A DNA stretch of 64,000 bases. Origin: a virus. Under the pieces are notes generated by a model. It was not told the DNA's origin, did no database searches, and worked only from the letters and a program-made list of their open reading frames with translations. The stretch lies in IMG/VR virus record IMGVR_UViG_3300028535_000001; one strand, given 5' to 3'. How positions within the stretch are numbered: the stretch's first letter is position 1; each line of letters begins with the position of its first letter. The translations under genes and the position numbers were made by a program. Positions 4,140-44,709 of this stretch are shown piece after piece.

Positions 4140-4154
4140 GAACAAAAAGCGAAC
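4140..4154. promoter_or_regulatory. Alphaproteobacterial LexA-type box GAAC-N7-GAAC
   Basis: GAACaaaaagcGAAC upstream of the 4211 promoter. Confidence 0.6.
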
Positions 4155-4210
4155 AGGCTAAAAAAAGCGCCATTTTACGTATATTTTTTGTATTTTTGAG
4201 CATTTTTTTG

Positions 4211-4239
4211 TTGACTTTTCTATATTTATCTGGTATAGT
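4211..4239 (+). promoter_or_regulatory. Sigma70-type early promoter
   Basis: TTGACT-17nt-TATAGT with extended TG. Confidence 0.8.
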
Positions 4240-4273
4240 GGACCAATAAATGAAAATAATAAAGGAAAACACT

Positions 4274-4459
4274 ATGAATACTTTTTTTAGTATTACAACT
4301 ATACTTTCTGCTATAATGGCAGTTGGTTTCATTGAAGATTGTGGTGGTCATTGTTTAGGAAACGATAACTGGCCAATGTTCTTTGTAATGTTTGGAATTA
4401 TGTTAATTTCAGGCATATTAACATTATACACTATGGAGGGAAATAATGACAATTGTTAA
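4274..4459 (+). CDS. Small two-TM membrane protein
   Basis: SD AAGGA then ATG at 4274; two hydrophobic helices around a CGGHC loop. Confidence 0.65.
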   Translation: MNTFFSITTILSAIMAVGFIEDCGGHCLGNDNWPMFFVMFGIMLISGILTLYTMEGNNDNC

Positions 4460-4829
4460 TTTAAAAGCAACTTCTTTAGATGAAGGAGTTAAAAATATGA
4501 TGAATGGTGCCAAGGCAGATTATGTTTCTTGGACTACCGACAAAAATGGTAACGTTTCTGACTACTCAAAAGAAGAAATCGCAAATTGGGATAATAAAAC
4601 AACAGTAAAAAAAGGTCAAAAGTACATTAAGATCGTACATGACAGAGGTGTTTTTGCATTTATCGTAATAAATGATTTTAAACACTTTAAAAAAGGCGAT
4701 ATATTAAAAGCGGCTGGTTATAATGCACCTGCTTTAAATTCTCCTAGAGGAAATGTACTAAATGGCAATTACCATATCAAATGGACTGGTCCTTTGTATA
4801 TGGATTCACAAAGAAGATTAAGAGGATAA
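4446..4829 (+). CDS. Hypothetical early phage protein
   Basis: GGAGG SD; GQKYIKI..GDILKAAGYNAPA motif typical of marine phage hypotheticals. Confidence 0.7.
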   Translation: MTIVNLKATSLDEGVKNMMNGAKADYVSWTTDKNGNVSDYSKEEIANWDNKTTVKKGQKYIKIVHDRGVFAFIVINDFKHFKKGDILKAAGYNAPALNSPRGNVLNGNYHIKWTGPLYMDSQRRLRG

Positions 4830-4830
4830 T

Positions 4831-5124
4831 ATGAATAGACGTGATAGAGTTTTTAGAAATATAGTAAACCCATTATTACTTAAACATATGTTAGACCCAT
4901 TTAAATATCAAGGGTCTTGTATAGCTGCTGGTATACCAATTAAGTATTTAAAATACTTTAAAGAAATTACTAGAGCTAAAAACGCCAAGAAAGTTAGATA
5001 TAGATATAGAGGTTGTTCAAAACCAAATTACAAAAGACCTCAATCTTTTTGTCATATTTTTGGTGCTGATACATTTAGTTTATATTATAGAAATCCAAAC
5101 AATAACTATTTTAGATATAATTAA
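4831..5124 (+). CDS. Hypothetical basic protein
   Basis: Third gene of the plus-strand cassette, AGGA SD. Confidence 0.6.
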   Translation: MNRRDRVFRNIVNPLLLKHMLDPFKYQGSCIAAGIPIKYLKYFKEITRAKNAKKVRYRYRGCSKPNYKRPQSFCHIFGADTFSLYYRNPNNNYFRYN

Positions 5125-5531
5125 CTATCTATAATACGTTTTCTTAAATCGGTGGTGGAGAACCTATGTTCTCTTTTATTGTAAACAATCTTTATGTGTT
5201 TCTTAACACATATCTCTTTACCAGTAAAATTCTTACCTTGATATTCTTCACCTATAATTCTAACTGATATATTATACATTTGGAATATATCTTCTAAATC
5301 TTTTTCTGTTTCGTATGGTATAACTTCATCTACATATTTTATAGCATTAAGTTGTATACTTCTCTCTACCAATGTTTGTATTGGTTTTTTCTTTTCTTTT
5401 GGTCTATCTATAGTTGGATCAGTTTGTAATCCAACAATCAAGTAATCGCATTCTTCTTTAGCGTCTTTTAACATCTGTACATGACCAGCATGTAACAAAT
5501 CAAAAGCACTACACGTAAATCCTACTTTCAT
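5121..5531 (-). CDS. tagD: Glycerol-3-phosphate cytidylyltransferase (TagD-like)
   Basis: FDLLHAGH (HxGH) motif and C-terminal FSTTDLR. Confidence 0.85.
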   Translation of the reverse strand: MKVGFTCSAFDLLHAGHVQMLKDAKEECDYLIVGLQTDPTIDRPKEKKKPIQTLVERSIQLNAIKYVDEVIPYETEKDLEDIFQMYNISVRIIGEEYQGKNFTGKEICVKKHIKIVYNKREHRFSTTDLRKRIIDS

Positions 5532-6490
5532 ATTTTATCCTTTTCTTGCACTCTTTGACTATTAAATCCGTACAACTTTATATAGTTTGCAAGCCATTCA
5601 TGTCCTTTTTTATTTGGGTGTGTATTAGCTTTACTAATAACATAATCATAATTAACTAAATCTTTTGGAGCTATTTTATATAATGTTCTTCCATCGTCCT
5701 CCACATTTAATAACTTCATATCTGTATCTTTGTCGTGTACTCTTTCCTCGGATACGGAGTTCTTCTGCCGTTCTTCATAAGTACTATTAGCAGGATTAAA
5801 GGTAGAATTAGGTATATTATTGGCTAATCTATTTTCCACTCCCCAATTTTTATGTATTTGTACATCACCAAGAACAAAACCACCACATTCGTCAATGATA
5901 GGCCAACCAATAAAGTTTTTCATTTTATGGAAGTATGGTGATGTTTTAATTACATCACAACAACTATTATATATCTTTCTAAATGGTATACCATTATCTT
6001 TATATTCTACTTCATATAGATGATCTATAAATAAAGAAATCATTTGAAAATGTCTATATGGTATTCTATTATTTTCCATTAATGTTTGAAAGGCATACAT
6101 GTATCTTAATGAATCTAATATCCAAAAATGTACATGACCGTATAAATTAGGTTTACTATCATCCCAATTTAAAGAAATTTTTTGCCAATTTGCTCTTTGA
6201 CTTTTTGACCAGGCTGCAATACATAAACCAATTTCTTTTGGATCATGTGACACCACGTAATCTTGTATTGTTGAGAATATTCCTTGTTGACCAAAACCAC
6301 ACTTTGCTAAACAAACTAATTCCATATCTAATTTTTTTGCTAGTAGTTGTGCCCAATTAGGAAAATTCTTTATAGTAATTATATCACCATCATACCTTTG
6401 CCCTGGTACAACACCTTTTGGTGAATTTATTAAATTAACATATTCAATATCTGACCAACTACAACCACCAATTACTAATTTCTTTTTCAT
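5528..6490 (-). CDS. SGNH/GDSL-like hydrolase-fold protein
   Basis: N-terminal GGCSWS and C-terminal THPNKKGH; paralog of 45977-46750. Confidence 0.5.
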   Translation of the reverse strand: MKKKLVIGGCSWSDIEYVNLINSPKGVVPGQRYDGDIITIKNFPNWAQLLAKKLDMELVCLAKCGFGQQGIFSTIQDYVVSHDPKEIGLCIAAWSKSQRANWQKISLNWDDSKPNLYGHVHFWILDSLRYMYAFQTLMENNRIPYRHFQMISLFIDHLYEVEYKDNGIPFRKIYNSCCDVIKTSPYFHKMKNFIGWPIIDECGGFVLGDVQIHKNWGVENRLANNIPNSTFNPANSTYEERQKNSVSEERVHDKDTDMKLLNVEDDGRTLYKIAPKDLVNYDYVISKANTHPNKKGHEWLANYIKLYGFNSQRVQEKDKI

Positions 6491-6501
6491 TTTACCTTTT
6501 A

Positions 6502-7935
6502 CTATCCAACTGATCCTTCCATACTAACTTCTAATAGTTTATGTGCCTCTACTGCAAATTCCATAGGTAGTTTTTGAAATACATCTTTGCAAAAACCTGA
6601 TATAAGCAAGTTTCTAGCGTCTTCATCTTTTAGTCCACGTTGTCTTACATAAAATAGTTGTTCTTCATCTAGTTTAGATGTAGTTGCTTCGTGATTACAA
6701 TGGCTTGTTGAATTTTTATTTTCAATATATGGTACTGTATGAGCAGAACAATGGCTACCTAGTATTAATGAATCGCATTGTGTAAAGTTTTTTGAACTAC
6801 TTGCATTTTTCAAAATCTTTACTAAACCTCTGTACGTATTTGATGAATGTCCTGCAGATATTCCTTTTGATATAATTATACTTTTAGTATTTTTACCCAT
6901 GTGAATCATTTTAGTACCTGTGTCAGCCTGTTGTTTTCCATTTGTTAATGCAACTGAATAAAATTCTCCTACTGAATTATCACCCATTAATAAACAAGAT
7001 GGATACTTCCAAGTTATAGCAGAACCAGTTTCAAATTGTGTCCAAGAGATTTTTGAATTACGTCCTTTGCACTTGCCACGTTTAGTAACAAAATTGTATA
7101 TACCGCCTTTACCTGTAATAGGATCTCCTGGGTACCAGTTTTGTATTGTTGAATATTTTATTTCTGCGTCATCTAGTGCTACAAGTTCTACGTTAGCAGC
7201 GTGTAGTTGATTCTCATCCCTCATTGGTGCTGTACAACCTTCAAGGTAACTTACATAACTGCCTTTGTCTGCTATAATTAAAGTTCTTTCAAACTGTCCT
7301 GTGTTAGCCGCATTGATTCTAAAATATGTACTTAACTCCATTGGACATCTTATTCCTGGTGGCACATATACAAATGAACCATCTGTAAATACAGCAGAAT
7401 TTAAAGCGGCAAATGAATGATCACTTATAGGTATAACTGATCCTAAATATTTTTTTACAAGATCAGGATGTTCTTGTACTGCGTCTGAAAATGAACAAAA
7501 TATAATTCCTTTTTTTGATAATTCTTCTTTAAATGTAGTAGCAACGGATACAGAATCAAATACAGCGTCAACGGCCACTCCTGCTAGTTTGGCTCTTTCA
7601 GTTAATGGTATTCCTAATCTTTCAAAATCTTTTTTAATTTCTGGATCAACATCATCATATGATTTAGGACCTACTTTTGGTGCTGAGTAGTATGATATTG
7701 CTTGATAGTCTATAGGCTTAATATTAAGATTTGCCCAATCGGGTTGTTTTAAAATTTTCCATCTACGGTATGCTTTTAATCTAAATTCAAGTAACCATTT
7801 AGGTTCTTTTTTAATTTTTGAAATTTGTTTTATTGTGTTTTCGTTAAGGCCTGGTGGTAATGTTACTGATTCAACGTTTGTTGTAAACCCAGCATCATAT
7901 TTTTTGTTAATTTTTTCTTGTAGTATGTTATCCAT
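6502..7935 (-). CDS. sufB: Fe-S cluster assembly scaffold SufB
   Basis: [65 protein letters not shown] motifs. Confidence 0.97.
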
Positions 7936-7937
7936 TT

Positions 7938-8402
7938 CTAATCCTTTATCATCTTACGAAATGGAATCATTGTTGAAGGATTAAAGTTATGTCGTTTATA
8001 AAATGTTTGTGCTTGTACATTTGTTTTATCTGTAAGTAAAGTAATTCGTTTACATCCTTTTTTAGTTCCATATTCTATAGCATAATCTAATAACTTTGAA
8101 CCAACACCTGAATCTCTATAATCAGGAGACACAATCATATCTTCAAGTATAGCAACTCGTTCACCTAATGCTGTTGATACTGTATATAAAAGTAAAACCA
8201 TTCCAATTATATCTTCATCTTTTTTTGCAACAAAAATATTACCAATATTGTTATTGTTGAGTATCATTTCTAAACCACGACTTTGTGTTTTATAATTAGG
8301 TTTAAACTCAACTTCTTTTTCAAATAGATAGTTAAGAAGAATACATAACTCTGGAATATCTTTAGTGGTTGCTATCTGTATCATTTTCAACTTTTTCATC
8401 AA
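7938..8402 (-). CDS. GNAT N-acetyltransferase
   Basis: [15 protein letters not shown] acetyl-CoA motif; [10 protein letters not shown]. Confidence 0.85.
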
Positions 8403-8514
8403 TATCTTTTTTCTTTTTCTTCCAAGGTTTAAGGTCTAACAAGACATAAAATATAACTCCACCACATAGACAGATAAACAAAAAACCTAATATTACTTTT
8501 AATATTGTTATCAT
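8362..8514 (-). CDS. Small single-TM protein (50 aa, not in ORF track)
   Basis: MITILKVILGFLFICLCGGVIFYVLLDLKPWKKRKK; ATGA overlap with upstream gene. Confidence 0.5.
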   Translation of the reverse strand: MITILKVILGFLFICLCGGVIFYVLLDLKPWKKKKKDIDEKVENDTDSNH

Positions 8515-8864
8515 TTTTTAAACATTTCATCTAATCTACTATAGAAACTTTCTTTACTAGAATAGCCTACTAATCTTGCAACTTCTTTTCTACCATTCCA
8601 TATAATAAAAGTTGGTGTTCCTCTAATACCTTTAATTCTATTTTCGTTCATTGCCATTATAAACCAAAAAGGTTCTTCATTATGTTCTATAATAGTAAGT
8701 GGTAATTCTTTATTTTTAGAACCATATGAATAGCTAAAGTCTTCGGCGACTTGTTTAATAAATGCTTGACAAATATGACAATGCTTGTTTGAATACATTA
8801 ACAAGTCTAATGCTTGTATTGTTGTAGCATAAAACATTGCTAAAAGAAATATTAATATTTTCAT
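8511..8864 (-). CDS. Exported thioredoxin-like protein (SoxS/SoxW-like)
   Basis: Signal peptide, CHIC CxxC, GTPTFII cis-Pro motif. Confidence 0.75.
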   Translation of the reverse strand: MKILIFLLAMFYATTIQALDLLMYSNKHCHICQAFIKQVAEDFSYSYGSKNKELPLTIIEHNEEPFWFIMAMNENRIKGIRGTPTFIIWNGRKEVARLVGYSSKESFYSRLDEMFKK

Positions 8865-9319
8865 TATTTTTTCTCCACATGTGTTGCTTCACCTTTTTCA
8901 GTATCTATCCATTCTACCACTTGTGTATATTTTTTTGACTTAGCACATGTAGTCCTACATGCATTTGGTCCTATATTATTTGATAAGTCTTCTGCAAATT
9001 GTTTCCATTGTTTTGATTTTAATATATCTTCTATTTTATTGTTATCATCTATAACACTTGCTTTCAACATATCTTGCATTAATGGGTCGTTCATTGTATT
9101 TGGATCGTCAATTCTACAACAAGGTAGTAATACACCTTGATTAGAAACTGCTAAAGCAATTGCGTCTTTAAAACATAAAGGGTCTAACTCAATATCTCCT
9201 TTTGCTCTTAATGGTGATTTAGCTCCTAAAGAGTTATTGATTCTTCTAATATCAGCAGACCTATTAATTCCTCCAATTCTTTTTTTAATCATCTCCGTTT
9301 TTCCTATCAAAACAACCAC
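8864..9319 (-). CDS. SPASM/twitch-like Fe-S domain protein
   Basis: C..GVLLPCC..CRTTC; probable true start at 9292 after GGAG. Confidence 0.65.
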   Translation of the reverse strand: MVVLIGKTEMIKKRIGGINRSADIRRINNSLGAKSPLRAKGDIELDPLCFKDAIALAVSNQGVLLPCCRIDDPNTMNDPLMQDMLKASVIDDNNKIEDILKSKQWKQFAEDLSNNIGPNACRTTCAKSKKYTQVVEWIDTEKGEATHVEKK

Positions 9320-10037
9320 CCCTTACACACTCCTCAATGGATTGATGTTCGCTATGGTCATTTAATGTACTTTTTGTTTTAGGCTTTAACCAATCATCAT
9401 CATCTGTCCATCTTGCACTATTAATTATTATAAAATTAACATCATTATCTTTGGCCATTTTCATTGCTTGCCCAATACTCCTTTCATTATAACTGAATAT
9501 AATATATTGCCATAATGGTTTTGTGGAAAGATACTTTTTACTTTCTAACATAATCTTAAATAGTTTTTCGCCATCTTGATTTTTTCTATATATTCTACTA
9601 TCTTCAGGCATGCCATCTATACCAAATATCCAATTTGCTTTAGGGTTTGCTTGAAAGGCATTGATATAATGTTGCATAGGTTTTAAAGATGAAGCTACAT
9701 GTACTTCAACTTTAGTACCACGTTCTTTTGTGATTTTTAATAATTCGTTTATTTTTGGGTGATGTATTGGGTCTGAATATTGACCACAAAAAGATATTCT
9801 TGTAAACCAATCCAATAATTTATTAAATTCAGGTATTGTTAAATCTCTGCCTGGTACTTTAAGGCCTTTGTATAAGTAACTTCTTTGACGACCACAACGT
9901 AAACATTCTAATGGACACCTATGAGATAGATCAATGTTTAAACGTTTATGTCTTCTATCAAAAAAGGAATTTTCCTTTATTTTGATACCGTGTTCTTTAA
10001 AACACATGTCTATCTTTTCTCTATTCGTTTCAATCAT
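9285..10037 (-). CDS. Radical SAM protein
   Basis: CPLECLRC (CxxxCxxC); FCGQYSDP; FGIDG. Confidence 0.88.
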   Translation of the reverse strand: MIETNREKIDMCFKEHGIKIKENSFFDRRHKRLNIDLSHRCPLECLRCGRQRSYLYKGLKVPGRDLTIPEFNKLLDWFTRISFCGQYSDPIHHPKINELLKITKERGTKVEVHVASSLKPMQHYINAFQANPKANWIFGIDGMPEDSRIYRKNQDGEKLFKIMLESKKYLSTKPLWQYIIFSYNERSIGQAMKMAKDNDVNFIIINSARWTDDDDWLKPKTKSTLNDHSEHQSIEECVRGGCFDRKNGDD

Positions 10038-10054
10038 AATATAAAACTATTTAG

Positions 10055-10378
10055 TTAAATACTAAAAGATGTTCCACAACCACATGATGATTTAGTATTA
10101 GGGTTTTTGAATTGGAAAGAACTACCAAAGATTTCTTCTTTGTAATCCAACTCCATACCTGCGACATATATTTCAAATAGATTATCTATTACTACTAGAT
10201 TGTCAACTATAATATCATCTTTAGTTGGTGTCTTTTCAAATTCGTTTGGTATAAATGACCATTCGTATTCGTGACCTGCACAGCCACCACCTTTTACTTC
10301 TAGTCTAACATAATCTACTTTATGTTTTTCTTTTAAAATATTTAAATGTGCTTTCGCACCTTCCGTTAATGTAATCAT
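10055..10378 (-). CDS. A-type Fe-S carrier (IscA/SufA/HesB family)
   Basis: GGGCAG and NPNTKSSCGCGTSF motifs. Confidence 0.95.
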   Translation of the reverse strand: MITLTEGAKAHLNILKEKHKVDYVRLEVKGGGCAGHEYEWSFIPNEFEKTPTKDDIIVDNLVVIDNLFEIYVAGMELDYKEEIFGSSFQFKNPNTKSSCGCGTSFSI

Positions 10379-13897: not shown

Positions 13898-14025
13898 TGT
13901 TCCTTAATCTTGTCTTTAATATGTTATGGTCAAATCCTCTCGTCATGGCCTCTTATATGGCCTCCGTTAGTATATCTATCGTCAAAGCGAGCGGAGCGGT
14001 CGGAAATTTCGGAGATTCTCTAAGC

Positions 14026-24827: not shown

Positions 24828-25985
24828 TTAAATTCCTTTCTTCATTACGTTATAAACTATTTTTTTCCAATTATAATGTTGGTCATCTGTATTAACAACA
24901 ATTACTTGACCTGTTTCCATGTTCATAACTATTTGTTGACCACCAGCACCGTCCATTGCAAATATAATACTATCTTTCATACCCTTAAATGTCATATGAA
25001 ACTGACCACCGTATTCGTATGTGGCCTGGTGAGAGCCTTTATTATAATCTCTTTTAAATCTACTATTTTTGGTAACTCTATTATCGTATATAGTTCTTAA
25101 ATAATCACCAATACAAGTATCAGAATTAAAATCTTTAATTATAGTATTAGCTATTCTTAAATAATCTTCACTCTTAGCATAAAAAGAATATCTACTTACG
25201 CCTTTATCTACGTCTTGTTTTGACCAAGAAACTTTGACAAAGTGTACATCATCTTTTACACCAACATGATCTGTAAATATTTCTTTTAATAATTTCTCAT
25301 AATTATCATAACCAACTTTGTGAATTACATAGTTGATAGCAACATGTGTTGACATTGCACTATAATTGTAAGGAGAGTTTTCCTCTTTCTTTTTTGTGCC
25401 TTTAAACCACAACATGCTCTCTGCAACAGTTCTTCTATTGATTTGTTTAGTTTTATTGTCTTTAAAAAAACCATCATTTCTAAATTTCTTTTCACCAATA
25501 TAGTCTTCGTCACCTGAAGTCATATTTAAAACTTGCATTAAGTTATTATCTACATATAAAGTATTGTTAATAACAACCCAATCATTTAATTGTTTATTCA
25601 AATCAATACCATATTTACAAACAGCATGACCTGTCACATATGAAATTAAACTTTTACCCATTGAATTAGATTGAAAAAGACCCTTATTTTCTTTAACATC
25701 GTTAGTCCAATTATTTTTATTTACTTTAATCTTACCATCTTCAAAAACAATATAAGATATTAAACCAGTTTTATCGTTGTTTTCTAATTGTTTATCAACA
25801 TAAGTTGTTAATTTATTTTCAACTAACTCTGTTTCTAATTTTTGATAATCATTTGAACCAGGAGCCGAAAAAGATATACCTTTAAAGTTATGTTCTTGTT
25901 GTTTGTGGTCAGCATTAGCAATATTGTTAAGACCCAACCATAGTAATACGTTGATTGTGATTATTGTTATTAGTAGTTTTTTCAT
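24828..25985 (-). CDS. Exported serine hydrolase (beta-lactamase/PBP-like family)
   Basis: Signal peptide; SMGK (SxxK), YNYS, YGGQF, GAGGQ motifs. Confidence 0.8.
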   Translation of the reverse strand: MKKLLITIITINVLLWLGLNNIANADHKQQEHNFKGISFSAPGSNDYQKLETELVENKLTTYVDKQLENNDKTGLISYIVFEDGKIKVNKNNWTNDVKENKGLFQSNSMGKSLISYVTGHAVCKYGIDLNKQLNDWVVINNTLYVDNNLMQVLNMTSGDEDYIGEKKFRNDGFFKDNKTKQINRRTVAESMLWFKGTKKKEENSPYNYSAMSTHVAINYVIHKVGYDNYEKLLKEIFTDHVGVKDDVHFVKVSWSKQDVDKGVSRYSFYAKSEDYLRIANTIIKDFNSDTCIGDYLRTIYDNRVTKNSRFKRDYNKGSHQATYEYGGQFHMTFKGMKDSIIFAMDGAGGQQIVMNMETGQVIVVNTDDQHYNWKKIVYNVMKKGI

Positions 25986-26041: not shown

Positions 26042-26054
26042 GCTTTTTCTGCTA

Positions 26055-26069
26055 GAACATTTAGCGAAC
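26055..26069. promoter_or_regulatory. LexA-type box GAAC-N7-GAAC
   Basis: GAACatttagcGAAC, 13 nt upstream of the -35. Confidence 0.6.
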
Positions 26070-26669
26070 AAACACGTCCTTTAATGTTAATTTACACTCT
26101 GTTTGGTTGAATTTAACGAATTTATTGAATTTTTTAAGTCTTTTTGAGAGTATAGGCCAAATAAATTTCTCTGAAATCTGTTTGTCCCAACGTTTGGCAA
26201 ATCCTAGAAAATGGTCTAAAATTACCGTTGTTTGGAAAGTTATATTTTTCTTAATAAGAAGTTGTAACAACCTTGGATGCTGTCCATTATTGCAACTAAA
26301 ACCAGAATCAAAAGAAAGAGACCTAGTAGAAAAGTCATCAGCAATCCGTAAGCAATCGTTTCTAAAATGGTAACTAATACCATCGGTATATTTTTTATAG
26401 TTGAGATAAACTTGTTTGCCATCTTTACTTAATAAATTACCAACCCATTGCCTGTCATCGTCTAAAAAATTAGCAACGAAGAAGTCTGTTATTTCATATT
26501 TATCATAGTGCTTACTTAACTTATGGAAGAAGTATCTATCATTACGTTTGGTAAATGTCTCTAATTTACAATTGACCTTACCACCATAATTAAAATAATC
26601 ATAATTATCTGTTGTAAAATGTAATTTTATTGCCAGATAAGTTTTAAATACCTCAAATCCATCATGCAT
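26061..26669 (-). CDS. 59: Helicase loader gp59
   Basis: GFEVFKTYLAIKLHFTTDNYDYFNYGGK..KRNDRYFF. Confidence 0.9.
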   Translation of the reverse strand: MHDGFEVFKTYLAIKLHFTTDNYDYFNYGGKVNCKLETFTKRNDRYFFHKLSKHYDKYEITDFFVANFLDDDRQWVGNLLSKDGKQVYLNYKKYTDGISYHFRNDCLRIADDFSTRSLSFDSGFSCNNGQHPRLLQLLIKKNITFQTTVILDHFLGFAKRWDKQISEKFIWPILSKRLKKFNKFVKFNQTECKLTLKDVFVR

Positions 26670-26688
26670 ATATTTTTCTCAATTTTTA

Positions 26689-26931
26689 TGCCTGTTTCTG
26701 TTGCAAGGTACAGGCAAACCCCGGCTACCTAAGCAGCCATACGATAACTTTCGTTGTCGTTTATAGTTTTAACAGTACGTTGTTAGCGATTTAACTCCAA
26801 ATAGTTTTAGTAGCAGTCGAATCTAACTCACCCCCTTAAAGCACACACGTATGTGTTTTGAATTGGTGGAGGTGGTGGGTACTGCCCCCACGTCCTCACT
26901 AGTTATTGTCTATTCTTCAACGTCAAATTCC
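26689..26931 (-). ncRNA. ssrA: Circularly permuted (two-piece) tmRNA
   Basis: Acceptor piece ends GTGGG-GGCAGTA-CCCAC-CACCTCC-A-CCA at 26864; 28-nt spacer; coding piece starts GGGGGTG at 26835 (G3-U70 pair); tag DNESYRMAA-stop at 26758-26729. Confidence 0.92.
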
Positions 26932-26933
26932 TT

Positions 26934-27164
26934 TTATACCGGTAGCGACCCTTGTTTTGGTATGTTTAATAGTTTTAAATTAATGGCCTCTACTTTTAAT
27001 TTTTCTTTTATCTGTTTATTGATAAATGAGTTTACTCTACCTGGATCCAAATCTTTTAATTCACATAAATGTATAATTGCGTCCATGTAGGAAATCTTTT
27101 GTTTTCTAACTGTATTCTCAATCTCTTGTGAGAAAGTCTTTGAGTTCATCTTTATAAGTTCCAT
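26934..27164 (-). CDS. 33: Late transcription coactivator gp33
   Basis: FSQEIE..SYMDAIIHLCE..KEKLKVEAINLKLL. Confidence 0.9.
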   Translation of the reverse strand: MELIKMNSKTFSQEIENTVRKQKISYMDAIIHLCELKDLDPGRVNSFINKQIKEKLKVEAINLKLLNIPKQGSLPV

Positions 27165-29843: not shown

Positions 29844-30161
29844 TTATTTTGCTCCTTTTTTACTTTGTCTTGCTAGGTGTTTTTTGATTACTTTCTTTGT
29901 TGCTATATCTTTCGCCGATCTTTTTCCATATCTATTTGCTAATTCACTTCCTGGGTGGGCTTCTGCTATACGTGATAGATTATCTTTCCAACCACTATCG
30001 TTCTTCATATTAACACCTAAAACACCACCAACTATATTTATGGGTTGTGGTACTTGTGTTATATGCTTATTTTTCTTCATATAAATCTCCATTTCTGCAA
30101 TGGACATCATTTCTGTAAATTCTTTTTTATTTCTTTTATTTCTAAACGTGTAAATTGGCAT
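29844..30161 (-). CDS. FmdB-like small protein (no Cys)
   Basis: MPIYTF start; GWKDNLSRIAEAHPGS. Confidence 0.55.
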   Translation of the reverse strand: MPIYTFRNKRNKKEFTEMMSIAEMEIYMKKNKHITQVPQPINIVGGVLGVNMKNDSGWKDNLSRIAEAHPGSELANRYGKRSAKDIATKKVIKKHLARQSKKGAK

Positions 30162-32172: not shown

Positions 32173-32355
32173 TTACTTTTTCTCTATTTTTTTACAAGTT
32201 TCTGTATCAGCTGGGTGTTCTTTTTCAGTAAACCATATGTAAGAATAAACTATATGGTTATCTTTTTCCATACATTTCTTACCAAATGATATTTCTTTTC
32301 CAGAACAGGCTGTAATTACAAAAAGTAATAATAAAAACGTCATTATTTTACCCAT
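32173..32355 (-). CDS. Small lipoprotein
   Basis: Lipobox ITAC. Confidence 0.6.
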   Translation of the reverse strand: MGKIMTFLLLLFVITACSGKEISFGKKCMEKDNHIVYSYIWFTEKEHPADTETCKKIEKK

Positions 32356-37795: not shown

Positions 37796-38293
37796 TTAAT
37801 CTTTATCATCATCTGTTTCTTCTGTAAAAAATTGGTTGGCACCATTTGATAGGTCGTCAACTTCTTCTTTTACCTCTTTACTAAATGGTCTAGTTGGTGT
37901 ACGTTTAGCTTCTATTACCCTACTATAATCTATTTTAGCTGATCTATGACCATTCTTTAATTGTTTTATATCTACTAATTTGTCTGTTAAGGAGTGAGAC
38001 GTATGTTTCATTCCAAAATCTCTGTAGATTAAACCTCTTAATGTGTCTACCACCATAGCCAAGTCTTTTGTAAATGTTAACTTATCTGTTTTTATGGCCA
38101 TATCTAGAAAACTGTTTATTAATTTCATAACTATATCATCTACAGCAGATTCAATATATTGTTTTGTTTGCTGTTTCTTTAATTGATCGTTAAGTTTGTT
38201 TTGAATTTTTTGACTTTGTTGATCTTTACCTACACGCCTTACAATTTTATTTGTAGGAAATTGAATAATGTTTTTAATATCGTCATCGCTCAT
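37796..38293 (-). CDS. Hypothetical protein
   Basis: NIIQFP N-terminal motif. Confidence 0.65.
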   Translation of the reverse strand: MSDDDIKNIIQFPTNKIVRRVGKDQQSQKIQNKLNDQLKKQQTKQYIESAVDDIVMKLINSFLDMAIKTDKLTFTKDLAMVVDTLRGLIYRDFGMKHTSHSLTDKLVDIKQLKNGHRSAKIDYSRVIEAKRTPTRPFSKEVKEEVDDLSNGANQFFTEETDDDKD

Positions 38294-38601
38294 ATTTTAT
38301 AAAACGTATATTTAACTGTTAATTCTTCCCACACTTTTATAGGTCGTTCAGTATATAAAAAATACTTATTATAGTCTTCAACATCTTCACGCCCTAATAC
38401 ACCTCTCACCTTTATACAATTTGGTTTATCACTATGATTGATAAAACCACCTAACGGTGTTCTTATAAGTTCATCTTTAACAACTATATGTGATAATCCT
38501 AAATTAGTATCTTTCTCAATAAATTTTGTTGTAAATATTCCTTGACCCTCTATAGAAGATTTTTGAATTATTAATCCGTCTGGTAATGGTTCATACGTCA
38601 T
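38290..38601 (-). CDS. SET-domain protein
   Basis: SSIEGQGIF..FINHSDKPN..EELTVKY. Confidence 0.85.
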   Translation of the reverse strand: MTYEPLPDGLIIQKSSIEGQGIFTTKFIEKDTNLGLSHIVVKDELIRTPLGGFINHSDKPNCIKVRGVLGREDVEDYNKYFLYTERPIKVWEELTVKYTFYKI

Positions 38602-38861
38602 TATAGTACATCACCTTTGAAATTTATCTTACCTTCTTCTACAAAATACTCTAACAGTTGGTTATAACCACCAACTAATTGCTCGTCTATCTTCACCTGT
38701 GGCATTGATTTTACTTTTTTACCAATGTCCTTTAACATAGCGTCAACAGACGAAAAATCTTCCATCTTTTTTTCTGTGTATTCAAGGCCAAGCTTAGTTA
38801 AAAGTTCTTTGGCCTTGGTACAAAAGTGACAATTGTTTTTACTGTATATTACTATTTTCAT
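38601..38861 (-). CDS. Glutaredoxin (NrdC-like)
   Basis: CHFC, SMPQV, GGY. Confidence 0.9.
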   Translation of the reverse strand: MKIVIYSKNNCHFCTKAKELLTKLGLEYTEKKMEDFSSVDAMLKDIGKKVKSMPQVKIDEQLVGGYNQLLEYFVEEGKINFKGDVL

Positions 38862-39459
38862 TGGATTCTTTCATTAAGTTTTCGTAAGCTACGTCTGCTT
38901 TCATCTTAACGTTATAAGAATCTACAGCTTCTGAAATAGTGAAATTATACATTTTATTGTATTCACCCATTGGCAATCTTAAGCCAATCCAAGCTCTGTA
39001 ATATCCATTTTTAGTCATTGTGACATCTTTAGCAAAGATTTCATAACCTCTAACTGGTGTTTCTTTAATTAAGTTTACTATTGTAGACTCAACCTCTGAT
39101 ACAGTTGTCTTGTTATTATTCTTTCCTAGTTCAGTTATGAATTGTTTGCTAGACTTATTCATTTCGCCTTTGATAATGTCGGCTAACTCTGCTTTTGCTA
39201 TCATCATACCTTTTTCTATTGCTAGATTTAAGTCTGGCGATACAGCAGTACCAACTCCAAAGATACACATTTTATCTTTTTCTTTACCAAATCTTGGCGT
39301 GGCACATGCTTTTGATTCAGAAAAATCGGCCATGTACCATTTTGGTACTTGATTTAACACTTTGCCTTTTTCTGATTTTATTTGATAATTAGAAGAACAA
39401 TTGGAAATCAATAGTCCTAATAATACAACTCCTACGAGTTTTATCGTTTTTTTCATCAT
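38839..39459 (-). CDS. Lipoprotein (LPP20-like)
   Basis: Lipobox ISNC; VPKWY; AKAELA. Confidence 0.7.
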   Translation of the reverse strand: MMKKTIKLVGVVLLGLLISNCSSNYQIKSEKGKVLNQVPKWYMADFSESKACATPRFGKEKDKMCIFGVGTAVSPDLNLAIEKGMMIAKAELADIIKGEMNKSSKQFITELGKNNNKTTVSEVESTIVNLIKETPVRGYEIFAKDVTMTKNGYYRAWIGLRLPMGEYNKMYNFTISEAVDSYNVKMKADVAYENLMKESNENSNIQ

Positions 39460-39485
39460 ATATTTTAATTTACCTCACTCTTAAT

Positions 39486-39514
39486 AGAATACACCATTTC
39501 GCCTAATTTGTCAA
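39486..39514 (-). promoter_or_regulatory. Sigma70-type promoter
   Basis: TTGACA-17nt-TATTCT. Confidence 0.7.
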
Positions 39515-39601
39515 GTCCCATTTGTACATAGTCCAAAAACTCACCAGCTGAAATTCCAGTGATTACTACGAATAAGAGAGATAAAATGATTAAGTTTTTA
39601 A

Positions 39602-40123
39602 TCATTGTTTTACCTTCCATTCACCGTCCTTATTTAAACATGTTTTTCCGAACGACTTAAAAACATGATTTTTTCTACTATACCAACGGCAATACTCTGG
39701 TGTTGCAACGTCTCTATAGTAAAACTGAGCAAACAGTTCCCAATAACTAGGACCGTCTACTTTCTTCCTACCATCAGCACATTCAAGGGTTTCTTCTTTT
39801 ATTATATTATTGCCTTGTTGCTTGATAATAATTTTTACATAACAATATTGATCGGCGGCATTTTTTGGTTCAATTGTCGTGATCTTATCGTAATAAACCT
39901 TACCTTTTTCTTTTTCAACTTGTTCAATCTTCTCTAATACTTCAATAGTTTTTTCTACTGTAGATGATACTTCTGTAGATGATATTACTTTTACCTCTGA
40001 TATTGGTAAAACATTGCCTGTTAAATCAGCTGTCACTCCTTCAACATCTGATTTTGCAACATCGGTTAACATCAATATAGAAAAGGCCATAATCGTGGCC
40101 ATTAAAAATTCTTTTTTATTCAT
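39602..40123 (-). CDS. Exported hypothetical protein
   Basis: MNKKEFL signal peptide after AGGAG; 4 Cys. Confidence 0.6.
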   Translation of the reverse strand: MNKKEFLMATIMAFSILMLTDVAKSDVEGVTADLTGNVLPISEVKVISSTEVSSTVEKTIEVLEKIEQVEKEKGKVYYDKITTIEPKNAADQYCYVKIIIKQQGNNIIKEETLECADGRKKVDGPSYWELFAQFYYRDVATPEYCRWYSRKNHVFKSFGKTCLNKDGEWKVKQ

Positions 40124-40346
40124 TTCTCTCCTTGTACATAAAATAACCACCCATAACTATACCTGCAAGGATTATAGTTCTTAATTCTATAGGTGCTGAC
40201 CAAAATATTTCAAATATTTCTATCAATTTCTATTCCAATCTAATTTTTGTACTAACGGAATCATTATATTTGGATCCGGAAATACTTTTTTGTTTATTTT
40301 GTTAACTGATATAGTTAACCAAACTAACATTGCTATTATTACACAC

Positions 40347-40529
40347 TTAGCTAATATGTCTACTTGTTTCGTCATTTGCTCCTAACTTTGTTAATGTATC
40401 ATTAATTTCATAAAGTTCGTCATTTAAAGTATTTGTTTCACCTGAAAATTCCATTTCGTCCTTTATTTCATCTTTTCTTTTTTTAAGATTTTGTACTGTT
40501 GTATTATTCGCCATAATTTCCTTTATCAC
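40347..40529 (-). CDS. Hypothetical protein
   Basis: Short coiled-coil ORF. Confidence 0.5.
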   Translation of the reverse strand: MIKEIMANNTTVQNLKKRKDEIKDEMEFSGETNTLNDELYEINDTLTKLGANDETSRHIS

Positions 40530-40731
40530 TTGCTACAAGTTTACATTGTGATTGTATATCTACTATCATATTGTCAACTTCAGCGTCACGCTCTGGTGAC
40601 TTTGTTTTATTATATTTTGTTTCATATAATCTATCACTAATGACTTTTATACCATTAATCTTTTTGCATAGTTCACTTACTTTATGTATCATTGTTTTAA
40701 CTCCACCCAACGTCCATCTGGTAATTGACAA
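40504..40731 (-). CDS. Hypothetical protein
   Basis: ORF; true start likely MIHK. Confidence 0.5.
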   Translation of the reverse strand: MSITRWTLGGVKTMIHKVSELCKKINGIKVISDRLYETKYNKTKSPERDAEVDNMIVDIQSQCKLVASDKGNYGE

Positions 40732-41168
40732 GCAGTACCAAATATAACTTCTCTATTAACACCGCCTATACCAATTAATGGCCATCTATTTGTTATATCC
40801 ACTGTAGCGTCATATTCTTTACACTTAAACGGTCCTTCCATATAAGATCGTGTAATTTTAATTATGCCTGAATTTCCTGTTTTACTATTATACCAATTAG
40901 TATATGAAGAACCATTAATACCATTGTTTAAATGATCTACGAATACAGCATTGTGTACATCGTAGTCTGAATTATACATAATTTCTGCACCGGCAAATGC
41001 ACCAACTAAAGTACAACCAGCGACAACATAGGGATCACTTACTCCCATTTCAAGACATGCACCAGTGGTTGTTGTAGCACCTAAAACTGCTCCTACTTGT
41101 GATCTATTTGTAGAAGCACAATTTGTAAGTGCTAAACCGATTAATAATATTAGTATATTTCTAATCAT
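40689..41168 (-). CDS. Rickettsia 17-kDa surface antigen-like glycine-zipper lipoprotein
   Basis: Lipobox LTNC, Gly zipper, WYNSKTGNSG, CKEY, GTACQLPDGRW. Confidence 0.8.
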   Translation of the reverse strand: MIRNILILLIGLALTNCASTNRSQVGAVLGATTTTGACLEMGVSDPYVVAGCTLVGAFAGAEIMYNSDYDVHNAVFVDHLNNGINGSSYTNWYNSKTGNSGIIKITRSYMEGPFKCKEYDATVDITNRWPLIGIGGVNREVIFGTACQLPDGRWVELKQ

Positions 41169-41458
41169 TACTGTTTTATATTAAACAATCCTTTTATTTG
41201 GTCTATTGTTTTAGCTAATTGAATTTTACCCTTAGCCCAATTTTCTTTTTGGAACTTTTTAGTTTTTTCAATTTCCATAGACAAGTGATTACCAATCTTC
41301 ATTGGAACCTCTGAAACTGACTTACCAAATTCTTTTAGTGTCACTTTAGTGTTCTCATCACTTTTTGCCATAGTTGCTGTCATTAAACCAATTATGGTCA
41401 TTAACATCATCATTGTTCTCATCTTTCCTCTTTCTTTGGTTATTATATTTGTTCTCAT
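41168..41458 (-). CDS. Exported hypothetical protein
   Basis: Signal-peptide-like segment. Confidence 0.55.
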   Translation of the reverse strand: MRTNIITKERGKMRTMMMLMTIIGLMTATMAKSDENTKVTLKEFGKSVSEVPMKIGNHLSMEIEKTKKFQKENWAKGKIQLAKTIDQIKGLFNIKQ

Positions 41459-41593
41459 ATAATTAGTTAAACACTTTTATTAAAATTATGGTTTGCATAA
41501 TTAACAACACAATTGGAAGTATAGTTCTAATTAATTCCATTATGTGATTATACTCATCTAATTTTCTTTCTAATTTATTTCTTTTCTTTTTCA

Positions 41594-41980
41594 TTAATAC
41601 CAATCCCTTTGAATTTTTTCTGTTTTCTTCGTAGTTGTCAATCCTGATTTAGATTCTCCAAGGTCTGTAGCTTCATGTTCTCTTTTTTCTTGTCCCATTT
41701 TTTCTGCATAAGTCATTCCAAATACTGTCTTATAAAAATGGTCTCTAGGATTTGTTGATCTATAAGCTATCTCTAAATTATCAAAGTTAATATTAACATG
41801 TTCATAATAATGTGGTTTGTCTATTTTTAGTTCTTTATGATCTACACAAAATTTAATTCTATTTGTGAAATAATCGTTTTCTTTGGCGTCTTGGTCTTTT
41901 AATTTGGACAAAGCAATGTCTTTTTTCTTTGCCTCTGCAAATTCTTTGTATAAATTATCTTTATCGTATCTAAAACTCAT
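41594..41980 (-). CDS. Hypothetical early protein
   Basis: First gene after promoter 42014-42042. Confidence 0.6.
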   Translation of the reverse strand: MSFRYDKDNLYKEFAEAKKKDIALSKLKDQDAKENDYFTNRIKFCVDHKELKIDKPHYYEHVNINFDNLEIAYRSTNPRDHFYKTVFGMTYAEKMGQEKREHEATDLGESKSGLTTTKKTEKIQRDWY

Positions 41981-42013
41981 AGTAATCCTTCCGTTATATT
42001 GTTTATTCTCATT

Positions 42014-42042
42014 AGGCTATCAGGAACCCTTGTAAATGGCAA
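42014..42042 (-). promoter_or_regulatory. Sigma70-type promoter
   Basis: TTGCCA-17nt-TAGCCT with extended TG. Confidence 0.55.
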
Positions 42043-42130
42043 CCCTACAAGAAACACTGTATTTACTTGTTTTTTCACTCCTGGAAAGCGCCAGGACACG
42101 CCAGGAACGCTTTTTCTCGCTGTCTGCATA

Positions 42131-42355
42131 CTAGAGTACCCCCTCTCCAAAAGGTAATACTAGCTGTTTCGCAACTTGTGGTTGCACTTTATCTAGTCTA
42201 TTTCCAAGATTTTTAAGTCTTGCCGGTAACACTTTAGTTATATTACAATAGGTACAACATACATCTTTTCCAAGTGGTGTTGGATTATGGTAATCCATAC
42301 CATTATCAATTTCTATTTCGCATATACAACACTTCATTTGTTTTTTCGCTTTCAT
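42131..42355 (-). CDS. Small zinc-finger protein
   Basis: CCIC..HNPTP..CCTYC. Confidence 0.65.
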   Translation of the reverse strand: MKAKKQMKCCICEIEIDNGMDYHNPTPLGKDVCCTYCNITKVLPARLKNLGNRLDKVQPQVAKQLVLPFGEGVL

Positions 42356-42367
42356 ATTTTACTCCTA

Positions 42368-42559
42368 TTAAAAATCAGTTAGTTCGCCATCAACATTTTG
42401 TCTAATATATTCTTCAACTGCCTCAATGTCTTTTTGATATTCGCCTATCTTCTCATCAATCAGCTTATGTGTTGGTTTAAATACTATATTCTCTGGTAGA
42501 CTCTTCTTAATCTCTTTTAGGTCTGCAAGTGGTCTATCTAAATCGTGACTTGTTGCCAT
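42368..42559 (-). CDS. Hypothetical protein
   Basis: AAGGAG SD before MATSHD. Confidence 0.55.
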   Translation of the reverse strand: MATSHDLDRPLADLKEIKKSLPENIVFKPTHKLIDEKIGEYQKDIEAVEEYIRQNVDGELTDF

Positions 42560-42560
42560 A

Positions 42561-42932
42561 TTATTCTCCTTCTTGTGGTTCATATGAAACAGTATTAATC
42601 TGAGTCTCCGGATAGCGGCCGGATAATTCACGCTTATGGCGAGACTCGCCGTCCTCAAATGGTGTTGTTGCGTCTTCACTACTCATTAATAATATTACAT
42701 AATGTATAGCTTTTAATAAATCTTTTCTATTTCTACCATTTTTCTTACCAAATCTAGCAAGATATTTAATTGCATTGGCTTGGCAAAAATCTTTATCAAT
42801 ACCTACTGATCTTAACAAATCTTGTACCTGAAAACCTTCGTCACCTGTAGCGTTAGATACATAATGTTGACCATATGTTGATTTAATGTAATCTGTTATT
42901 TCTTTTATAATTTTATCTTCGTTATATTTCAT
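42561..42932 (-). CDS. DUF3310-like phage protein
   Basis: YIKSTYGQHY..FCQANAIKYLARFGKK..DLLKAIHY. Confidence 0.75.
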   Translation of the reverse strand: MKYNEDKIIKEITDYIKSTYGQHYVSNATGDEGFQVQDLLRSVGIDKDFCQANAIKYLARFGKKNGRNRKDLLKAIHYVILLMSSEDATTPFEDGESRHKRELSGRYPETQINTVSYEPQEGE

Positions 42933-42943
42933 ATCCTCTTTCT

Positions 42944-43204
42944 TTACCATTGCCAAATATTCGCTGTCAATATTAAAATTAACATCGCTGGCACAACTAT
43001 TGTCATTGGCCAAAACTCTAAAAATTGTAGCCAAAGTGGTGGTTGTTTATTTTGTTTTTTTATATCTCTTTTAATTTCCATAATTAGATTATGAAGTGGT
43101 TCGCCTTTTTGAAAATTAGGAAAATCCAAATCACTCAATAGTTTCACTTGATTATATGCCTCTAATACAGTTGTCTTTTTTAGTTCAACGTTTACAGTTT
43201 TCAC
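42944..43204 (-). CDS. C-terminally anchored membrane protein
   Basis: Hydrophobic C-terminus. Confidence 0.55.
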   Translation of the reverse strand: MKTVNVELKKTTVLEAYNQVKLLSDLDFPNFQKGEPLHNLIMEIKRDIKKQNKQPPLWLQFLEFWPMTIVVPAMLILILTANIWQW

Positions 43205-43716
43205 TATTTACCTAACTGACTTTCTGCTTCTAAATTATTTGAAACATCAACATCAGATTCTTCTTTAGTTCCATAAACAACTTTTTCTAAATCGCCTAAT
43301 GGATCCATTTCTTTTTCTTTTTCAACAACTTCGCCCTTGTCATTAATGACATCGGTTTCTAAAGCATATGTGTCTAGTTCAACATCGCCATTTTCTTTGG
43401 CATTTTCTAAACCATCATAATCGTCATAAACTACTTTAGCAACATATTCAGTATCACCTGATTCTGTATAGTTGGCGTCTACCATATGTGTTTCAACACC
43501 GCCTTTTTCTTCTGCTAAGTCTTTACCTATGTTTGAATAGTTAATACCTGCGTCTGAAAGCAATGTATCTGCCTCATCTTGGTTTTTCGCTAATACATCT
43601 TGCTCTATGCATAATGTATAGTAAGTTTTTTTTCTGTATAGGTTTTTACCTATATCGTCTTGACCAATATATTGGTCTGTTATATCATGTTTACTCATTA
43701 TTGTACCTTTCTCCAC
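43204..43716 (-). CDS. Acidic hypothetical early protein
   Basis: D/E-rich ORF. Confidence 0.6.
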   Translation of the reverse strand: MEKGTIMSKHDITDQYIGQDDIGKNLYRKKTYYTLCIEQDVLAKNQDEADTLLSDAGINYSNIGKDLAEEKGGVETHMVDANYTESGDTEYVAKVVYDDYDGLENAKENGDVELDTYALETDVINDKGEVVEKEKEMDPLGDLEKVVYGTKEESDVDVSNNLEAESQLGK

Positions 43717-44210
43717 GCATATTTTGTATTTTTGATCTTACTTTTAGTAAGTTTAGGATTATAATCCTTTCTTAATGATTGTCTGGCATATGCTTGACCA
43801 TAATCATTAAATAAATCTTTATTACCTCTAGCTGTTTCACCAAATACATCTTCATATGTTTGGTAATATTTCTTTTGACTAATCAACTGTACTTTAGTTG
43901 TTTTAGCAAAATTAGAAGCTGTTTCTTTATAATTCCAATCTAAAAATTTAACAATCTTTAATTTCATATTATCATTAAAGTATTTCTTAAACTTATTAGG
44001 TACATTTCTATATACAGTTTCATATGCATAGAAATAATCACCTTCTTGTTCTGAATCCATATATTCTCTTAAATAACATACGTTAAAAGTTGTACCGTTA
44101 ACAACATCACTTAAAGATTTCCCTTCAACAAATATAGCTGGATCGCTATTAACAAATTTATCTGGTTTAGTATTCAATTTTAGTACCTCCGTTTTTAGTG
44201 TAATCTGCAA
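43698..44210 (-). CDS. Hypothetical early protein
   Basis: ORF in early cassette; start uncertain. Confidence 0.55.
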   Translation of the reverse strand: MQITLKTEVLKLNTKPDKFVNSDPAIFVEGKSLSDVVNGTTFNVCYLREYMDSEQEGDYFYAYETVYRNVPNKFKKYFNDNMKLKIVKFLDWNYKETASNFAKTTKVQLISQKKYYQTYEDVFGETARGNKDLFNDYGQAYARQSLRKDYNPKLTKSKIKNTKYAWRKVQ

Positions 44211-44442
44211 TTACTTTTCCTGAAATTGCGTCAACATAACAAAATATGTTAGTGTCATTTTTAAAATCATCTATAACTTCATCAATATTGTATTCATCAA
44301 TACCGATTAAATTGATATTTCCTGCATTTAATATTAAATTTTTTGCAACTGTTGAATTGTAAACACCAGCTTTGAATTTTGCAAGTATTTTATCTACATT
44401 GCTTTCTGCTGTGTCTGTAGCCCATTGTTTTACTTTACTCAT
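44167..44442 (-). CDS. Hypothetical early protein
   Basis: MSKVKQWA; AAAGGATACACTAATG leader. Confidence 0.65.
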   Translation of the reverse strand: MSKVKQWATDTAESNVDKILAKFKAGVYNSTVAKNLILNAGNINLIGIDEYNIDEVIDDFKNDTNIFCYVDAISGKVIADYTKNGGTKIEY

Positions 44443-44469
44443 TAGTGTATCCTTTGTTATTATTGGTTA

Positions 44470-44498
44470 ATCCTATCATACTATTTGACGTTTGGCAA
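44470..44498 (-). promoter_or_regulatory. Sigma70-type promoter
   Basis: TTGCCA-17nt-TAGGAT with extended TG. Confidence 0.65.
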
Positions 44499-44626
44499 CT
44501 AGTTTTTTTAAGTGGGCTTTCGTTCCTTTCGTTGTTTTTACTCTGAAAACCACATAAAGGGAAAACTAAAACATTTCTAGAAAGCCCAAAGTTTCCGGTC
44601 GCCTTTATTGTGAAATTCATACTACT

Positions 44627-44654
44627 ATCCTATCAGTCCTGGCGAGAAAGTCAA
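44627..44654 (-). promoter_or_regulatory. Sigma70-type promoter
   Basis: TTGACT-16nt-TAGGAT with extended TG and A-tract UP element. Confidence 0.65.
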
Positions 44655-44694
44655 GCACTTTTTTTACTTTTTTTACTAGTATTTACTTGTGTTT

Positions 44695-44709
44695 GTTCTG
44701 GTTTTGTTC
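44695..44709. promoter_or_regulatory. LexA-type box GTTC-N7-GTTC
   Basis: GTTCtggttttGTTC upstream of the tandem early promoters. Confidence 0.6.

Follow-up and report, generated by a model that had tools for sequence, protein, structure and literature searches.

LexA-controlled switches have been described for several temperate phages and mobile elements, among them GIL01 (PMC4551915, PMC6182141), CTX-phi and coliphage 186 (both reviewed in PMC9437464), whose operators overlap promoters and serve the switch between lysogeny and lysis. Sites for a host regulator are also found on non-temperate phages, such as the Spo0A boxes of phi29 and the CtrA boxes of alphaproteobacterial phages, which have been discussed with 'lytic deferment' (PMC9437464). 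Here we examine three LexA-type boxes, each a GAAC-N7-GAAC direct repeat with shared flanks, in a 64,000-nt stretch of viral DNA (IMG/VR record IMGVR_UViG_3300028535_000001; "the window" denotes this whole stretch), whose sequence marks it as that of a T4-like pelagimyophage, that is, a SAR11 myophage. The boxes are probably regulatory sites for host LexA that selection has maintained in the T4-like phages of SAR11, and their tie to early promoters is partly supported, holding as far as sequence can show.

Like GIL01, CTX-phi and 186, the window phage would be a mobile element with host LexA sites at its own promoters. Unlike these temperate switches, it is T4-like, no lysogeny genes were seen in it, and its sites stand upstream of the promoters of early accessory genes. 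With the Spo0A and CtrA cases it would share the reading of host state through a host factor by a phage without a classical lysogeny switch, the CtrA case being likewise from the Alphaproteobacteria; it would differ from both in that the regulator is LexA and the signal DNA damage, and the window phage gives no sign of a suspended lytic cycle. The alphaproteobacterial SOS (DNA-damage response) box (PMC8565304) has the same core, spacing and flanks as the phage boxes, but host operators overlap the -10 element or the start, whereas those of the phages are set 10-81 nt upstream of the -35 element, one of them within a coding region. Our literature search found no paper linking pelagiphages with LexA boxes, and the paper on Melnitz, a related phage of OM43, mentions neither LexA nor SOS. 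Relative to the known temperate LexA sites and non-temperate host-regulator sites, LexA boxes upstream of early promoters on a virulent T4-like phage would be new.

The 17-mer AGAACANNNNNNGAACA (AGAACA-N6-GAACA) has exactly three matches in the window, at 4139-4155 (+; box 1, AGAACAAAAAGCGAACA), 26054-26070 (+; box 2, AGAACATTTAGCGAACA) and 44694-44710 (-; box 3, AGAACAAAACCAGAACA), all of them perfect copies of the direct repeat (GTTC-N7-GTTC on the other strand) with identical AGAACA...GAACA flanks, as would be expected of LexA operators. An earlier reading of this DNA from its letters alone (the sequence-only reading) had reported the same three copies by the coordinates of their 15-nt GAAC-N7-GAAC core and had judged them unlikely to have arisen by chance, and both statements are borne out: dinucleotide-preserving shuffles give an expectation of 0.07 matches, and none of 100 shuffles reached three. 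The bare core GAAC-N7-GAAC is present in five copies (1.25 expected), the two additional ones, at 5759-5773 (-) and 53013-53027 (+), being located within long open reading frames (ORFs) and having no extended flanks; the second lies in the gene for NrdA, which the phage itself encodes.

The closest nucleotide matches of the window are the Pelagibacter phages Mosig EXVC030M (~70% identity) and HTVC008M, with Melnitz matching more distantly, and the IMG/VR contig UViG_3300021087_000654 (CheckV completeness 46%) encodes a gp25 identical to that of the window. An alphaproteobacterial host is supported by an alphaproteobacterial two-piece (permuted) transfer-messenger RNA (tmRNA) gene at 26687-26983 (-; Rfam RF01849, 93.5 bits); ARAGORN returned no tRNA or tmRNA in the window, though Rfam detects this gene. 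The tmRNA gene, just upstream of gp59, overlaps about 50 nt of the 3' end of an ORF called as late-transcription coactivator (26934-27164). A search for the S24 peptidase family (PF00717) and the LexA DNA-binding domain (PF01726) gave no match at E <= 0.1 in the window-matching IMG/VR contig (~46% complete), Mosig, HTVC008M or Melnitz. A circuit with a phage-encoded LexA-like regulator, of the GIL01 gp6 type, was not found in the phages searched, and because they yielded no S24 peptidase or LexA DNA-binding-domain gene, the reader of the boxes is likely to be a host protein.

The sequence-only reading had called for an alphaproteobacterial host with LexA, and SAR11 answers to this: lexA is present, and the host's own SOS genes carry the same direct repeat with the same flanks. 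Pelagibacter genomes were reached with a SAR11 16S probe, three being examined in detail and one scanned whole. A lexA gene scored over the family cut-off in 3/3 and then in 38 of 41 Pelagibacteraceae genomes, and in 31/31 Pelagibacteraceae loci the lexA match is preceded, at 37-43 nt, by a perfect GAAC-N7-GAAC, typically aaaaGAACTTTTATAGAACAtt and often adjoined by phased GTAC or GTTC half-sites. In the SAR11 lexA control region (loci L167-L169 and L208-L235) half-sites follow one another at 11-bp steps, as GAAC-N7-GAAC-N7-GTAC and then an inverted GAAC on the other strand, a run that suggests binding of more than one LexA dimer. Additionally, TAAGAACAAAACAAGAACATG abuts umuD-umuC in the three genomes; TAAGAACAAAACAAGAAC, placed just after a TATAAA -10 element, abuts the ATG of umuD (S24 peptidase), which is followed by umuC (IMS family). 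A further box, GAACATTTATAGAACA, occupies the divergent region between the ribonucleotide reductase (RNR) and phosphomannomutase (PMM) genes (HIMB4 37879-37893), and a second HIMB4 box is at the start of an MGMT-domain (ogt-like) gene (661419-661433), which suggests that RNR and alkylation repair may belong to the SOS regulon of SAR11. A GTAC variant, AGAACAAAATGTGTACA (also given as GAACAAAATGTGTACA), precedes recA in three genomes. The HIMB4 genome (1.38 Mb) holds only 12 perfect boxes, compared with 30 for the reversed pattern. SAR11 lexA, recA and umuDC are known to be co-induced as a working SOS set (PMC2864753, PMC12753301), and GTTC-N7-GTTC is the alphaproteobacterial LexA motif (PMC8565304), as the sequence-only reading had stated. 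Since the repeat marks the host's own lexA, umuDC, RNR and ogt-like genes and, as the GTAC variant, recA, we infer that SAR11 LexA recognizes GAAC-N7-GAAC, usually as (T)A-GAAC...GAAC-A; the host loci and the published motif together identify the SAR11 LexA box, and all three window boxes have the flanks usual for it, (T)A on the leading side and A on the trailing side.

Box 1 is not intergenic: it is embedded in the signal-peptide codons CSLFVL of a minus-strand gene for a small lipoprotein (4015-4203, -; 62 aa, lipobox LVSC), the orthologue of Mosig_00111. The box is conserved in 24 of the 25 unique IMG/VR lipoprotein homologues, as a perfect GTTC-N7-GTTC in 18 (Mosig included) and as GTTC-N7-GTAC, the recA-type variant, in 6. 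The Leu codon that gives the last C of the box is CTN in 24/24 unique genes of the CSLFVL type, with all four third bases seen, while CTN makes up only 30% of Leu codons in the window genome and TTA 57%; in the same 24 genes Cys is always TGT and Ser always TCN. In Mosig the lipoprotein peptide differs (FVLLSF) yet encodes a perfect box in another register. Furthermore, HTVC008M has lost the lipoprotein gene, of which a 19-codon relic is left in a region annotated as intergenic (29994-30133), and box 1 survives this loss as GTTC-N7-GTTC, 17 nt before the next start codon. These patterns indicate that box 1 is conserved through selection at the DNA level, with synonymous choice preserving GTTC.

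Downstream of box 1, a sigma-70-type early promoter (TTGACT-17-TATAGT, 10/12, with TG) is called by the promoter tool at 4211-4239 (+) and is kept in Mosig; it would drive a plus-strand cassette at 4274-5124 (+) made up of three small ORFs of 61, 127 and 97 aa, the second of which matches DUF7717 weakly. In most pelagimyophages the lipoprotein, which has the lipobox LVSC and a CSKNVENC motif, comes first in the cluster of genes that precedes gp25 (baseplate wedge). A late-promoter-like GATAAATA precedes the window lipoprotein gene and TATAAATA precedes its orthologue in some relatives; the idea that box 1 is the operator of a T4-type late promoter lying upstream of it was considered and dropped because many relatives lack such a sequence.

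Box 3 overlaps the TAG stop of a minus-strand glycosyltransferase gene (44709-45377, -; phrog_1962, 1.6e-24). Orthologous glycosyltransferases were found in 19 IMG/VR loci (56-93% identity), and TAGAACAnnAC(C/A)AGAAC is kept in 16 of these. The box is retained down to 57% amino acid identity of the glycosyltransferase while the sequence between box and promoter diverges, so that it forms an island of conservation, and in one locus (L034) it is kept despite a 29-nt insertion that separates it from the stop codon; it is missing in Mosig and in loci L040-L042. The early promoter that follows (TTGACT-16-TAGGAT, 9/12, with TG and an A-rich upstream tract; 44654-44627, -) was called by the promoter tool and is kept in relatives. 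Downstream of it lies a cluster of eight small early ORFs (42131-44620, -), one with a DUF3310 match and the rest without a family.

Box 2 overlaps the final codons and the TAA stop of the gp59 helicase-loader gene (26061-26669, -; T4_Gp59_N, T4_Gp59_C; phrog_269, 8e-62) and is inverted relative to the promoter downstream. That promoter, a putative and weaker TTGCTT-17-TATTAT preceded by TG (26041-26013, -), was recognized by eye; the promoter tool made no call there, and the TTGCTT form of the -35 element recurs at early promoters of relatives. The earlier claim of a near-consensus promoter at each box thus stands for sites 1 and 3 and fails at site 2. The next minus-strand gene (24828-25985, -) encodes a 385-aa beta-lactamase-like protein (serine hydrolase; PF00144, E = 7.6e-5, below the Pfam cut-off); it is a cassette inserted between gp59 and the next conserved gene and is absent there in Mosig. 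The protein has an N-terminal hydrophobic segment ahead of its sub-threshold beta-lactamase/transpeptidase-fold match. Box 2 is kept in 7 close IMG/VR relatives while its flanks diverge. The overlap of boxes with stop codons (TAG-AAC or TAA-GAAC) results from the tight packing of the genome and the TA that flanks the motif itself.

The sequence-only reading had proposed a scan of relatives for the motif and for positional enrichment, and this revealed a spacing-specific excess in non-coding DNA in addition to the conservation of boxes 1 and 3. A count of GAAC-Nx-GAAC in DNA that is non-coding or at gene edges in the window, Mosig and HTVC008M gave 8 copies with x = 7, of which one sits in a small annotated Mosig gene, and 4 in total for the eleven other spacings between 2 and 13. 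A box stands upstream of an orthologous peptidase gene in both Mosig (13971) and HTVC008M (87259). The 15-mer GAACAAAACAAGAAC, which is letter for letter the host umuDC operator, is present in Mosig, HTVC008M and several lipoprotein and glycosyltransferase loci, and in more than 100 IMG/VR contigs. In low-GC IMG/VR contigs, 34 of the 70 unique contexts of this 15-mer are non-coding, many directly after a stop codon, and its distance to a TTGACT promoter has a mode of 41-43 nt. Conservation at orthologous positions exceeds the neutral expectation, as LexA operators should, and the phage boxes are, by these comparisons, conserved beyond what coding or ancestry explains and under DNA-level (purifying) selection.

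Melnitz, with its non-alphaproteobacterial host and a recent common ancestor with the SAR11 phages (PMC9004378), offers a contrast: it has 7 N7 core matches, 7/7 of them inside genes and none with extended flanks. This is what a host-specific adaptation would produce, with the limits that Melnitz has no orthologous lipoprotein, peptidase or glycosyltransferase loci and that the LexA status of OM43 was left aside. A comparison of orthologous sites with Melnitz was ruled out, these three genes being absent there. As a reciprocal control, E. coli-type CTGT-N8-ACAG boxes showed no non-coding enrichment in Melnitz, again with OM43 LexA status left aside.

The distances from the core to the -35 element, given as 13-56 nt in the sequence-only reading, were reproduced as 56 nt for box 1, 13 nt for box 2 and 40 nt for box 3. 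Across the relatives, the box end lies 10 nt from the -35 element at HTVC008M 134997, 13-14 nt in the box 2 class, 40-43 nt in the box 3 class and at Mosig 117858, 38-47 nt in the box 1 class of relatives (56 nt in the window and 62 nt in Mosig) and 80-81 nt in the peptidase class. Within each class this distance is constant to a few bases; no helical phase common to all classes was found at 10.5 or 11 bp, and the 41-43 nt mode dominates. The GAAC-to-GAAC orientation points towards the downstream early promoter in 6/7 classes, box 2 being the exception, and this matches the orientation of the host boxes towards the regulated gene. Relative to the start sites, the box centres fall at about -55 to -100. 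An operator overlapping the promoter core or transcription start was not found, and a classical operator, with a promoter overlapping the box, was discarded after neither inspection by eye nor the promoter tool gave one at the three sites.

Several observations weigh against a regulatory role for the boxes as host LexA sites. Most early promoters carry no box; the window boxes lie 13-56 nt upstream of the -35 element, whereas host operators overlap the -10 element or start site; one window box is inside a gene and one window promoter is weak; box 2 was seen only in close relatives, with neither Mosig nor distant gp59 loci having it; the bare core, counted over the whole genomes of Mosig and HTVC008M, does not exceed the reversed-pattern control; and a weight matrix built from host sites scores the window boxes at 14.1, 11.5 and <11, compared with 17.5-28 for host operators. 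The same matrix gives the boxes of Mosig and HTVC008M scores like those of host operators, and it was used neither for nor against, set aside because it rests on about four independent host sites and its spacer is overfitted. As for the counts, the phage signal resides in position, spacing and conservation and not in totals.

If host LexA does read the boxes, intact LexA dimers would occupy them after injection and modulate a subset of early transcription units, namely the accessory cassettes in the window and the peptidase gene in Mosig and HTVC008M; LexA self-cleavage, triggered either by ultraviolet (UV) damage to the host or by RecA activation caused by infection itself, would then alter the expression of the box-linked units. 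With 10-81 nt between the boxes and the -35 element downstream of them, simple steric occlusion is unlikely, which upholds the caveat of the sequence-only reading that two of the boxes are rather far upstream for plain steric repression. The upstream position points to three likely actions. LexA might interfere with the A-rich UP-element region contacted by the carboxy-terminal domain of the RNA polymerase alpha subunit, where boxes are 10-14 nt from the -35 element; it might act as a roadblock or insulator, stopping transcription of the gene whose end lies in the box from running on; or it might optimize or stimulate the promoter, as with Rhodobacter sphaeroides LexA at recA, which is reported to be both an optimizer and a repressor of recA transcription (PMC101838, cited in PMC8565304). 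The Rhodobacter case offers a precedent for sites that do more than occlude, with an alphaproteobacterial LexA exerting positive and negative effects from GAAC direct repeats; unlike the phage boxes, it concerns a host gene with two boxes near the promoter. Given the positions of the phage boxes, modulation is favoured over occlusion as the probable mode, whether by repression or by activation. Of the earlier proposal that early expression is tied to host SOS status, the box type, the host motif and the promoter linkage have found support, while pseudolysogeny or dormancy has found none.

A tentative extension, which we think quite unlikely to be correct, is that the LexA boxes form an early-to-middle timer in marine T4-like phages, which lack MotA/AsiA and recognizable middle promoters; SAR11 myophages have no known middle-mode control (PMC9004378). 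LexA bound over the stop codon that closes a unit, in front of the promoter of the following one, would insulate or damp selected units just after injection, infection-provoked RecA activation would cleave it and release these units, and UV damage to the host would pre-set the switch.

Other explanations of the repeat must be set against host LexA regulation. That it reflects chance, composition and coding bias in an A+T-rich genome could be argued from the post hoc choice of the motif, the frequency of GAAC on the A-rich sense strand, the two further core matches in the window that are clearly coding and the total core counts in relatives that are close to the reversed-pattern control; but three matches where 0.07 are expected, a non-coding enrichment specific to one spacing, boxes kept where flanks diverge, constrained synonymous codons and a box 1 retained after gene loss already disfavour this explanation and leave it barely tenable. 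A different reader of the 11-bp-spaced GAAC repeat, be it an early protein of the phage or a winged-helix response regulator of the host, or membership of the repeat in a larger upstream promoter module, is a more serious contender, although still an unlikely one. Direct-repeat periodicity of 11 bp is typical of OmpR/PhoB-type regulators, which it would fit, the upstream position suits an activator, and AAAACCCTAGTAAAATCAAC is conserved between box and promoter in many IMG/VR modules. On the other hand, the non-coding or gene-start boxes found in the three host genomes sit at DNA-damage genes, autoregulated lexA included, phage and host share an identical 15-mer, and with no LexA-like phage protein found in the PF00717/PF01726 search no candidate for such a reader was identified.

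The boxes could also be decoys that titrate the few LexA molecules of the tiny SAR11 cell as the phage replicates, derepressing recA, umuDC and RNR. The host has only a handful of operators, one of them beside RNR, the 3-4 boxes of each phage genome would be multiplied by replication, the boxes are not in occluding positions, and host nrd and SOS genes rise in pelagiphage infection (PMC12753301). Decoys, however, need no fixed place, and the phage encodes its own NrdA. It is because the position and orientation of the boxes relative to promoters are conserved, with class-specific distances (mode 41-43 nt) and one orientation in 6/7 classes, that titration is not favoured, and we give it little credence. 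Finally, the box might be a short shared border sequence of mobile promoter cassettes, aiding recombinational shuffling, with its SOS likeness incidental. The promoter-early stem-loops (PeSLs) that Arbiol et al. reportedly described in 2010 are said to be mobile regulatory cassettes of this kind in T4-type phages, and we know of none that includes a host repressor site. As in PeSLs, early promoter modules stand here at the borders of variable accessory cassettes, with the downstream cassettes varying at window sites 2 and 3 and both boxes placed exactly at conserved-gene/variable-cassette borders; in Mosig and HTVC008M, moreover, a stem-loop (GCTGTGCGA...TCGCAC) and then an early promoter come after the box, an arrangement like that of PeSL modules. 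Such a PeSL-like stem-loop is next to the box at Mosig 13971 and at HTVC008M 87259 and 133406 but absent at the window's three sites, box 1 is within a conserved gene rather than at a variable border, homologous exchange would have only a short stretch of 15-17 nt to work with, and the N7 specificity, the host match and the absence from Melnitz would be left unexplained, all of which makes an incidental border sequence very improbable.

A regulatory role for host LexA on these phages would matter in several ways. No bacterium in the sea is more abundant than SAR11, and myophages that infect it are likewise abundant; if the boxes act as proposed, sunlight- or infection-driven DNA-damage signalling would feed directly into viral gene expression, and the co-option of LexA, described so far for temperate elements, would extend to a lytic phage. 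Were the timer to hold as well, infection programmes of the surface ocean would be linked to sunlight. In practical terms, the boxes may serve as a sequence marker for host assignment, being found in SAR11 phages and absent from the non-coding DNA of the OM43 phage Melnitz, and the host loci, compared across genomes, allow the SOS regulon of SAR11 to be sketched for the first time in this way (lexA, umuDC, recA, RNR and an ogt-like gene). What the present analysis contributes is a box that lies within codons and has evidence from synonymous sites behind it, the relic in HTVC008M, the control for spacing and the contrast with Melnitz.

Several further features of the promoter modules were observed. 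The stem-loop mentioned above, GCTGTGCGA-(4-6 nt)-TCGCAC(C)AGC without a T-run, is found at Mosig 13940-13970 (-) and at HTVC008M 87274-87300 and 133421-133447 (+); PeSL-like, it comes right after the box in several modules and stands in its place in others (L040-L042 and the Mosig orthologue of site 3). The commonest box-promoter module (IMG/VR loci L323, L358, L418, L428 and others, and L038) contains, in the interval from the LexA-type box to the -35 element, another conserved element, AAAACCC(T)AGTAAAATCAAC, which resembles half an integration host factor (IHF) site, although the match is poor. In other low-GC viral contigs (L354, L371, L376), a umuD-type box is followed within 40 nt by further GTTC-N7-GTTC, and these clustered boxes may belong to a different, perhaps temperate, kind of SAR11 phage. 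In Melnitz (MZ577097, loci L200-L207), at least 11 early promoters (e.g., at 32277, 66590, 73149 and 136591) share a fixed palindromic spacer, TTGAC(A/T)TTTGTT-N5-AACATGTATA(A/C)T, which looks like an operator built into the promoter.

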